64,000 bases of DNA, from positions 32,054,001 to 32,118,000 of the forward strand of contig OX597836.1 in assembly GCA_951406725.2 (NCBI GenBank), read 5' to 3'. Below the pieces are notes generated by a model. The model worked only from the letters and a program-made list of their open reading frames with translations. It was not told where the DNA came from and ran no database searches. This stretch comes from Octopus vulgaris. Taxonomy: Eukaryota. A program made the position numbers and the translations under genes. This document shows positions 4,683 to 57,763 of the stretch, piece by piece (positions within the stretch are counted from its first letter, which is position 1; every line of letters starts with the position of its first letter).

Positions 4683-5109
4683 AATCTGCCAGAACATGTT
4701 AAGAATGAACACATACATTATTGTTTTGGCTGTTTCTGTTCTTTGAGCACATAATAAATTATTATCAGTTTGTCAGAACTGAGCACACATCAAAGAATAT
4801 GGTTATTTGGTTGCTGAATCCTATAAAGAAGAGCCATCAATCTTGCTTAGATTCACTGATCTGGGAATAGCTTTGACTGAAGAGGCACAACCAGGAGGAA
4901 ACACTGTGTTGTTTCAAAGTTCCCTTACATCCATGAATCAAGTGTGTTATGAATACATCATCTGAAAGGAGAATAACTTCTCCATTAATATAACTCTCTT
5001 TCCTCTTTACTCTTTTACTCTTTTACTTGTTTCAATCATTTGACTGCAGCTATGCTGGAGCACCACCTTTAGACGAGCAAATCGACCCTAGGAGCTACAA
5101 CCACTTTCT

Positions 5110-9375: not shown

Positions 9376-9572
9376 CCTCCTTCTTCCCTTCTTTCCTGAG
9401 CGTCCAATAATACTTTATTTGTTCCATGTCCTTGCGTTGTTGTTTTTTTGTTTTTGTTTTCTTGTTTGGATTAACTTTATATATATATGCTTTGCGCAGA
9501 AGCGGTACCATAGCCAATGAGGGTTATCCGAGGCGTGGTTATTGCTAGTTGAAAACTATATATGTATATATC

Positions 9573-9740
9573 GCAAATGAAAGATGGAAGATGGAATATA
9601 CGAGAATTTATTATTAATCATGACAATTGTTTTGACACATCTAGCATCGATTCCTCTTGGGTGCAACACTCAACAAGAAGAAACAATGCTAGATGTGTCG
9701 AAACAATTCTCATATATTCCATCTTCTGTCTTTCATTTGC
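9573..9740. repeat. Fold-back (inverted-repeat) cassette between TA tracts
   Basis: GCAAATGAAAGA..GAAGATGGAATATA pairs with TATATTCCATCTTC..TCTTTCATTTGC; inner arms GACACATCTAGCAT / ATGCTAGATGTGTC. Confidence 0.75.
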
Positions 9741-10602: not shown

Positions 10603-11302
10603 TAATATAAGCGGGACCAGCCATCTGAATGTGGCTAGGGACAGGGCGGGGTGGTGGGGGTGTTACTGATGCATTTAGCCCCAGGCGACTATAGAGATCA
10701 CCAGGAGAGCCGACACCATCACGGTGTCCATGCTAGCCTGCAAAGGGAGATCAGCCTCCCCGAAGATACGAATGCTACACCGTGATGGTGTCGGCTCTCC
10801 TGGTGACGTCTATAGTCGCCTGGGGCTAAATGCATCAGTAACACCCCCACCACCCCGCCCTGTCCCTAGCCACATTCAGATGGCTGGTCCCGCTTATATT
10901 ACAGAGCAGTTACTGTTTATACCTCGCTTAGAGATTTATTATTGTTATCGAACAGATTTTCGACGCCAGTGACTGTGTTTACAGTGAAAATCTATATATT
11001 TCTAGCCTGTAGAGGAAGTCCCTCAACGAAGAACGGTGTTTGCCATGCGCTGACGAGAGGCAATACCTCGAAACCGGTCCGTGTGTAGCATTCGTATCTT
11101 CGGGGAGGCTGATCTCCCTTTGCAGGCTAGCAAGGACACCGTGATGGTGTCGGCTCTCCTGGTGACGTCTATAGTCGCCTGGGGCTAAATGCATCAGTAA
11201 CACCCCCACCACCCCGCCCTGTCCCTAGCCACATTCAGATGGCTGGTCCCGCTTATATTACAGAGCAGTTACTGTTTATACCTCGCTTAGAGATTTATTA
11301 TT
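10603..11302 (+). mobile_element. Retrozyme-like non-autonomous retroelement: 359-bp monomer in ~1.5 tandem copies plus an inverted 5' arm
   Basis: 10781-10943 is repeated at 11140-11302; 10603-10780 is the near-perfect reverse complement of 11083-11260; GC-rich, non-coding, with one intact HHR. Confidence 0.8.
11041..11090 (+). ncRNA. Type I hammerhead ribozyme with canonical core
   Basis: CATGCG-CTGACGA-GAGG caata CCTC-GAAA-CCGG-TC^CGTGTG; 6-bp proximal stem I then an internal loop; predicted cleavage after C11079. Confidence 0.88.
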
Positions 11303-29559: not shown

Positions 29560-29593
<34 letters not shown>

Positions 29594-29649
29594 CGGAGAT
29601 GTACCTGCATAGCTAGTGATTTGATCTGAGATCGTGTGCTGAAACGAAA

Positions 29650-29932
29650 ACAATTGCAGCGTGGAAGGTGTTTGTAAGCCATTTAAGAAACATACAAAAG
29701 CCGTTCGATTCACTTCAACATTTAATTTTAATTTGTCAAAATATTTTCGTCGCTAGAATCCGCGACCTGTTCACTGACAAAAATCCGTGCAGCACGGGAT
29801 TTTTGTCAGTGAACAGGTCGCGGATTCTAGCGAGAAAATATTTTGACAAATTAAAATTAAATGTTGAAGTGAATCGAACGGCTTTTGTATGTTTCTTAAA
29901 TGGCTTACAAACACCTTCCATGCTGCAATTGT
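29650..29932. repeat. Near-perfect ~283-bp palindrome (fold-back PLE-like cassette; left arm extends to ~29592)
   Basis: ~141-bp arms centred on A29791, with only about three differences visible; flanked by (TA)n. Confidence 0.95.
29732..29781 (-). ncRNA. Hammerhead-like motif with compensatory G3-C8 core
   Basis: Minus strand TTTGTCA-GTGAACA-G-GTCGC ggattcta GCGAC-GAAA-ATAT-TT-TGACAAA; mirror copy on + at 29802-29850 lacks one C of stem II. Confidence 0.7.
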
Positions 29933-30159
29933 ATATATATTATATATGAGAAAAAGAGAGATTGATAGGTAGATAGATAAATAGATAAATAGATAAATAG
30001 ATAGTTAGATAAACAGATAGATGCGTAGGTAGGTAGGTAGTTAGGTAGGTAGATTGAAAGATATACACATATACATACATACAGATACATACATATACAT
30101 ACATATGCATATACATATATAACTATATATCTGTGTGTGTGTTTGTGTGTGTGAGAGAG

Positions 30160-51083: not shown

Positions 51084-51156
51084 CGCCCACAGGGGGACTC
51101 GAACCCACAACCCTCAGATTAAAAGTCTGATGCTCTACCAACTGAGCTATGCGGGC
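51084..51156 (-). tRNA. trnK: tRNA-Lys(UUU), gene or recent retrocopy
   Basis: GCCCGCA TAGCTCAGTTGGTAGAGCA TCAGA CTTTTAA TCTGA GGGTT GTGGG TTCGAGT CCCCC TGTGGGC G; 73 nt, one T-stem mismatch, oligo-T 8 nt downstream. Confidence 0.88.
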
Positions 51157-57691: not shown

Positions 57692-57763
57692 GCTGGGATT
57701 GTCTAGTGGTTAGAACTCCACGTTGTGGCCGTGGTAACCCAGGTTCGAATCTTGGTCATGGCA
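57692..57763 (+). pseudogene. trnH: tRNA-His(GUG)-derived pseudogene or retrocopy
   Basis: GCTGGGA TTGTCTAGTGGTTAGAACT CCACG TTGTGGC CGTGG TAAC CCAGG TTCGAAT CTTGG TCATGGC A; perfect anticodon arm, damaged acceptor stem, no T4 terminator. Confidence 0.8.

Follow-up and report, generated by a model that had tools for sequence, protein, structure and literature searches.

The window analysed here, 64,000 nucleotides of the Octopus vulgaris genome (contig OX597836.1), is AT-rich animal DNA that is dense in microsatellites, and it contains a 341-bp insertion at 29592–29932 most of which is palindromic. The reading that we favour, with moderate confidence, is that a Penelope-like element (PLE) inserted here once, as two stretches of its terminal repeat set head to head, and that throughout the family this repeat carries a minimal hammerhead with the swapped core pair G3-C8, predicted to be a slow, dimer- or protein-assisted cleaver.

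Origin and insertion form of the palindrome

The inverted arms, 29650–29790 and 29792–29932 (141 bp), are 97.9% identical, with 3 differences over 142 aligned columns, and no further copy of them was found in the 64-kb window. These values bear out the near-perfect fold-back described in an earlier sequence-only reading of this DNA. The extent given there holds for the arms, but the left copy reaches 58 nt further, to 29592, and the full insertion consists of two head-to-head pseudo-LTR pieces. Its parts are as follows.

29562..29591, no strand: (TA)n target; a second TA-rich run lies beyond the other end, at 29933–29949
29592..29790, minus strand: long copy (199 nt) of the pseudo-LTR end of the PLE, reaching the more distal of its two fixed 3' termini; 94–97% identical to 39 other copies that were scored
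29592..29649, minus strand: 58-nt 'tail' found in one arm only, equal to the spacing of the two 3' termini and read after Frangieh et al. 2024 (PMC11167929)
29593..29682, minus strand: first 30 codons of the PLE ORF (MAYKHLPRC...), in frame with the RT/EN ORF of loci L069 and L070
29788..29791, no strand: arm junction, 4-nt self-complementary TGCA, located from the sequence
29792..29932, plus strand: inverted short copy, 141 nt, which stops at the proximal fixed 3' terminus

We infer that the arms were joined at TGCA through microhomology. The TA-rich flanks on both sides mask any target duplication.

A genome search with the unit returned 752 candidates, of which 40 were scored, at 94–100% identity. 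An exact 17-mer of the core matched the genome 6,746 times (control, 1) and a 19-mer outside the motif 10,178 times; end copies of the palindrome's own PLE family, called family A below, number about 10,000. Upstream of the unit at L012 a GIY-YIG-like C-terminus was present, and extension gave open frames of up to 1025 aa. The 1025-aa frame of L062 matches Pfam GIY-YIG with E 1.8e-5, above the cut-off, and has a CxxxCxxC linker (CQSNCAVC) at residue 896. Its RT was assigned from the YVDD and DKSG motifs and from homologues named as RT-domain proteins; Pfam gave no RT match in the PLE ORF, nor any match for the 117-aa EN fragment alone. The nearest named homologue of the element protein is labelled Octopus.

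At L069 and L070 the unit runs directly into the ORF N-terminus, and the long-copy sequence likewise continues straight into the ORF at L122, where the order is inverted truncated copy, hammerhead-bearing pseudo-LTR, ORF (broken in L122) and a second hammerhead-bearing pseudo-LTR. This layout agrees with the PLE organisation described in PMC8557442 and PMC2377424. Because the unit abuts the ORF N-terminus and L122 has this layout, the unit in the window corresponds to the hammerhead-bearing pseudo-LTR end plus the first 30 ORF codons. The translation of 29593..29682 is 38% identical to the N-terminus of the related family D (E 2.6e-16). That the palindrome derives from a Penelope-like element is almost certain.

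The element has the features of EN+ PLEs: a single ORF with RT plus GIY-YIG at the C-terminal end, tandem pseudo-LTRs, an inverted truncated copy and a tail. As in the Neptune/Nematis-type EN+ PLEs of Craig et al. 2021 (PMC8557442), GIY-YIG follows RT, the linker is of the CX2-5CxxC form, (TA)n is targeted, the inverted copy lies at the 5' end, and a tail and partial tandem copies occur; the linker and the (TA)n bias place it at the joint Neptune/Nematis level. A term search of the supplement of PMC8557442 did not find family A. The unit does not behave as a non-LTR retrozyme, for it overlaps the ORF and is inserted singly or inverted, not as tandem non-coding monomers.

Insertions were sampled as the first 100 matches of the external 19-mer, which yielded 82 insertions. 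Head-to-head fold-backs account for 46 of the 82, and 40 of these 46 pair a long with a short arm; 7 of the 82 are re-duplications of one insertion, and independent fold-backs number 40 of 76. Among the best-matching loci, 17 of 30 fold back, 8 of the 17 with flank duplications of 10–13 bp scored by eye. Within the first 32 Mb of C1, seven occurrences of one fold-back (L254, L257, L295, L296, L300, L301 and L304) have the same junction and flanks, so that it has been amplified as the passenger of a larger repeat. The palindrome in the window is an unremarkable dead copy, one of thousands of equivalent insertions. Its pseudo-LTR identity, and the fold-back as the routine insertion form of the element, are what the sequence-only reading missed.

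Near-perfect inverted arms would also fit two other readings, an artefact of the assembly or the library and a MITE derived from a DNA transposon. Against them stand the 3 differences between the arms and the unequal fixed ends, the recurrence of this form across the genome with junctions that vary and with target duplications, and the identity of the sequence as terminal repeat of an element with RT and GIY-YIG. Both readings were rejected on these grounds, and we regard them as extremely improbable.

The 3' ends of family A copies cluster at unit positions 139–144 and 196–199, that is, 58 nt apart. At the other end, 47 of 100 copies start 3–10 nt upstream of the unit (mode −6), and those starting at −10 to −3 have no upstream sequence in common. 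From these DNA copy ends, transcription would seem to begin about 20 nt ahead of the core. In L004, L012 and L025 the 5' end that is commonest among short copies is immediately preceded by a branch-point and a polypyrimidine/AG signal, a setting that resembles a 3' splice site as well. The alternative of a short upstream exon 1, spliced to the unit, is disfavoured because the upstream sequence differs among the −10 to −3 starters, and a transcription start is preferred for the same reason.

For PAc (Poseidon, Anolis), Frangieh et al. 2024 (PMC11167929) report that the PLE protein nicks and extends both strands and that RT starts at two internal sites, which define the 'tail'. In the mechanism that we propose for family A, a transcript beginning about 20 nt upstream of the core would be copied by the element's RT, starting internally at two sites about 58 nt apart, one for each nicked strand of the (TA)n target; the two run-off cDNAs would then join near the RNA 5' end and give the long-plus-short fold-backs, with the template RNA left uncleaved. 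Two internal RT starts within the beginning of the ORF, a tail, AT-rich targets, extension of both strands and an uncleaved RNA template would all be shared with PAc. Unlike PAc, the octopus family has a tail of 58 nt instead of 30–40, an ORF that starts 56 nt downstream of the cut site, a CxxxCxxC linker of the Neptune/Nematis type, and a core swap that is natural and not engineered (PMC11167929).

The hammerhead motif and its 3–8 pair

The motif lies on the minus strand within the long copy. The following parts were placed from the sequence.

29732..29781, minus strand: predicted minimal type I hammerhead, descriptor match at 29774
29781–29775/29738–29732, minus strand: stem I, 7 bp
29774–29768, minus strand: core GUGAACA, from G3 (29774) to A9 (29768), with C8 at 29769
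29767, minus strand: extra G between A9 and G10.1
29766–29762/29753–29749, minus strand: stem II, GUCGC/GCGAC, 5 bp
29748–29745, minus strand: GAAA
29745–29740, minus strand: helix III, AAUAUU, self-complementary
29739, minus strand: U17, with the predicted cut between 29739 and 29738

The minus arm has the three-way topology of type I hammerheads: stem I, stem II with G10.1-C11.1, A15.1-U16.1 and H17. When the motif is folded in isolation its stem pairs have probabilities of 0.71–1.0, and no descriptor match of comparable quality (at least 5 of 7 bp) was obtained in 40 simulated 64-kb sequences drawn from a dinucleotide model. The literal CUGANGA core with C3 and G8 is absent; the GUGAACA box to which the sequence-only reading had drawn attention is present instead, and its positions 3 and 8 are Watson-Crick complementary (G-C). 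That reading had also expected standard searches to overlook the motif, and indeed a scan with Rfam found no hammerhead family at the locus, nor at 6 loci of the related families B and C. The short helix III is self-complementary, as dimer formation needs, with a very weak predicted duplex (−0.2 kcal/mol). The extra nucleotide 9/10.1 is G, as opposed to H in the published min-HHR consensus CUGANGAH; the same extra G is found in relatives with C3-G8, namely family C, family D and L357.

In the plus arm (G3 at 29809) C11.1 has been lost (GCGA-GAAAA) and the descriptor failed. The full topology that had been ascribed to each arm is therefore wrong for this one, and of the two hammerheads assigned to the two strands only that on the minus strand is intact. 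A read-through transcript is predicted to form a hairpin of −235 kcal/mol, compared with −14 kcal/mol for the hammerhead fold, and this hairpin would bury the motif whichever strand is transcribed. The dsRNA of about 140 bp that had been proposed would be a by-product, one that inactivates the hammerheads instead of displaying them.

The stability of this hairpin, together with a weak match to a miRNA hairpin model, is what speaks for a functional locus that would produce dsRNA (as siRNA, miRNA or editing substrate) or one ribozyme per strand. The model match reaches only 41 of 100 bits, far under the cut-off, at one of thousands of insertions, and the miRNA reading was rejected. More generally, thousands of insertions are equivalent to this one, with fold-backs in 46 of the 82 sampled; one of its arms is broken already, and formation of the hairpin precludes the hammerhead fold. 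A function of the locus itself is very improbable. If cleavage takes place, it would be in tandem or pseudo-LTR transcripts through helix III dimers, and not at the locus, where on each strand the antisense arm comes first and the sense arm second.

Several other features were observed in the window. A hammerhead with a canonical core (11043–11087, plus strand; C3 at 11050, 4-bp stem II, CCGG helix III loop) lies in the repeat 10900–11300, within a retrozyme-like unit that is about 359 nt long and partly repeated in tandem. A U4 snRNA match of 76 bits (9488–9618, plus strand), well conserved in its 5' part and degenerate in its 3' part, is probably a pseudogene. Two tRNA matches were detected, one at 51084–51156 (minus strand; 70.5 bits, the aligned anticodon being UUU) and one at 57692–57763 (plus strand; 42.5 bits).

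Within family A the swap is general. When positions 3, 7 and 8 were left free, a motif search matched 5,402 times; C8 is lacking in 317 of these and G3 in 144, so that at least 4,941 (91%) are G3-C8. In a further sample of 100 copies selected by the 19-mer outside the motif, 26 did not cover the core; 70 of the 74 that did are G3-C8 and none is C3-G8. Conservation of GUGAACA and of the stems across the family, on which the sequence-only reading had made its proposal depend, was thus checked and gave nothing against it.

Deviating copies were also recorded. Among the first 100 non-C8 matches 35 have C8G, which corresponds to about 2% of copies and recurs across subfamilies; G3C occurs in 8 of the first 100 non-G3 matches (about 0.2%). 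C8G is thus about 10 times commoner than G3C, an excess that we count against our main reading. Three near-identical G3.A8 copies stand about 3.4 kb apart in a tandem array (L119–L121, G000:C2:171237734-171247632). An intermediate G3.G8 sub-lineage was considered and rejected: 30 such copies are spread over all subfamilies, with no convincing diagnostic site against 54 others (the best has p=0.009, one among many tested).

Family B is old (16 copies, 74–88% identical to their own majority and about 80% to family A), and its core has G3 in 14 of 16 and C8 in all 16. N7 and loop II have changed, stem II is longer, and helix III is shorter (AAUU) yet still self-complementary; its loop type occurs in 19 of 92 matches of a separate search. 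Canonical cores that share the stem II of family A were found only three times, every one in the old family C, whose 10 copies have the majority core CUGAUGAG, with C3 in 5 and G8 in 7. Since families B and C were retrieved with motif letters of family A, the conservation of their stems is partly circular.

Family D was found by its protein, which is 55% identical to that of family A over 815 aa and forms the sister branch to A (100/99); it has C3-G8, a two-sided change in stem II and an intact 1312-aa frame. In this youngest of the families A9C is present in 21 of 30 copies and stem I is mostly mismatched. Represented by L178 (G000:C17:6329000-6338000) and L324–L353, family D is very young: its intact frames measure about 1310 aa and its tandem units about 4.6 kb, its end matches number 5,037, and some older-looking copies retain A9.

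Metagenome relatives were likewise found by protein, and the descriptor applied to them left positions 3, 7, 8 and 9 free. Three of nine loci pass it, one with C3-G8 (L357) and two with U3-A8 (L356, L359), and all three carry the extra nucleotide, a palindromic helix III and U17. A fourth, L354 (metagenome contig, 4970–5020), is C3-G8 by eye, with U15.1-A16.1, a rare core variant, and the palindrome UAGCUA. No hammerhead was found in the other 5 of 9 loci, several of which have little 3' flank.

The 3–8 pair is therefore G-C in families A and B, C-G in C, D, L357 and L354, and U-A in L356 and L359. In a hand-picked alignment of 13 rows, 6 of 14 pairs change on both sides and the 3–8 pair is present in 11 of 12 rows; as the rows are related, these two-sided changes are illustrative and carry no probability. 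Because positions 3 and 8 stay complementary in the G-C, C-G and U-A forms, the G3-C8 core is very probably a genuine natural covariant, judging from these sequences. The natural covariant family that had been proposed thus stands: the swap is family-wide in A and kept in the older B, among relatives with C3-G8 or U3-A8. It would be derived, having arisen once in an ancestor of families A and B, and would have been kept because the 3–8 pair is needed. The protein tree lacks resolution in its deeper branches, and the swap would be a single evolutionary event, which we count against our main reading.

Cleavage and relation to known hammerheads

That the swapped-core motif cleaves measurably is, from its sequence, somewhat more probable than that it does not. 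Among the 100 marker-selected copies of family A only one has a 5' end at the cut site, and microhomology accounts for it. In family D none of 30 copies ends there, with a 5' peak less sharp than that of family A. As family D has C3-G8, this proxy is uninformative about the swap, and it gives no sign of cutting in vivo. PAc, likewise, has no reads starting at the cut site, and its hammerhead mutants insert normally in vitro (PMC11167929). The sequence-only reading had stated that the double C3G/G8C swap restores activity; a rescue is reported, but a partial one (PMC11167929; PMC8495972), and metazoan min-HHRs cleave poorly even as dimers (PMC4209133). The weak helix III duplex and the extra G also speak against cleavage, although C3-G8 relatives have the same G; the conserved 3–8 pairing and the partial rescue speak for it.

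Several of these observations would fit a motif of the same PLE origin that is catalytically dead or negligible, retained for its RNA structure (in a promoter/5' UTR or RT-binding role) or hitch-hiking on successful master copies, with the swap fixed by drift through a relaxed period. The 5' ends show no cut-site peak, G3.G8 copies recur, and the youngest sister family D thrives with A9C and a broken stem I, which means that PLEs can spread with a degraded hammerhead. The published data lend themselves to the same account, PAc insertion in vitro being independent of hammerhead activity (PMC11167929) and the laboratory rescue being only partial (PMC11167929, PMC8495972). A purely structural role would not, on the other side, obviously require the 3–8 pair. 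This pair forms only in the active hammerhead fold. It is complementary in three forms across relatives found by protein, and G3-C8 survived the roughly 20% divergence between A and B while N7 and the loops changed. We therefore hold a dead motif to be a serious but unlikely alternative to the slow, assisted cleaver.

The octopus motif resembles the min-HHRs of metazoan PLEs (Cervera and de la Pena 2014, PMC4209133) in its location in the pseudo-LTR, its type I topology, the extra nucleotide 9/10.1, the G10.1-C11.1 pair, the palindromic helix III, the thousands of dispersed truncated copies, and the dual motifs on opposite strands. It differs from them in the 3–8 pair (G3-C8 here, C3-G8 and U3-A8 there), in the extra base (G against H) and in being a predicted ribozyme. 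Natural covariation of the 3–8 tertiary pair is already published in the U3-A8 form (Perreault et al. 2011, PMC3088659; PMC4209133); unlike U3-A8, the octopus pair reverses the purine-pyrimidine order. The portions of the text and supplement of PMC3088659 that were searched contain no G3-C8 example. No natural G3-C8 was found in the literature and supplements searched, a coverage that leaves aside Lunse, Weinberg and Breaker 2017, Przybilski and Hammann 2007 and supplement file 1 of PMC4209133. In this literature G3-C8 was met only as an engineered rescue variant, of which the octopus family, by its sequence, is likely the natural version.

Thousands of G3-C8 copies widen the hammerhead descriptor to N3 complementary to N8; since the family escapes the literal core, searches with CUGANGA and Rfam undercount ribozymes. 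With canonical as well as degraded sister families, this one genome offers a natural series for the question of what hammerheads do in PLEs, and the long-plus-short fold-back statistics support two-site, two-strand priming in PLE insertion. More tentatively, three of the four possible Watson-Crick 3–8 pairs may have been tried within the clade, with the octopus G3-C8 possibly a working, deliberately slow ribozyme that spares most RNA for reverse transcription, and the thousands of 150–205-nt copies may be run-off ('strong-stop-like') cDNAs of RNA that starts just upstream, with priming at two fixed sites that lie on opposite strands of the target. If this is true, the insertion mechanism of PLEs can be read at base resolution from the octopus genome.
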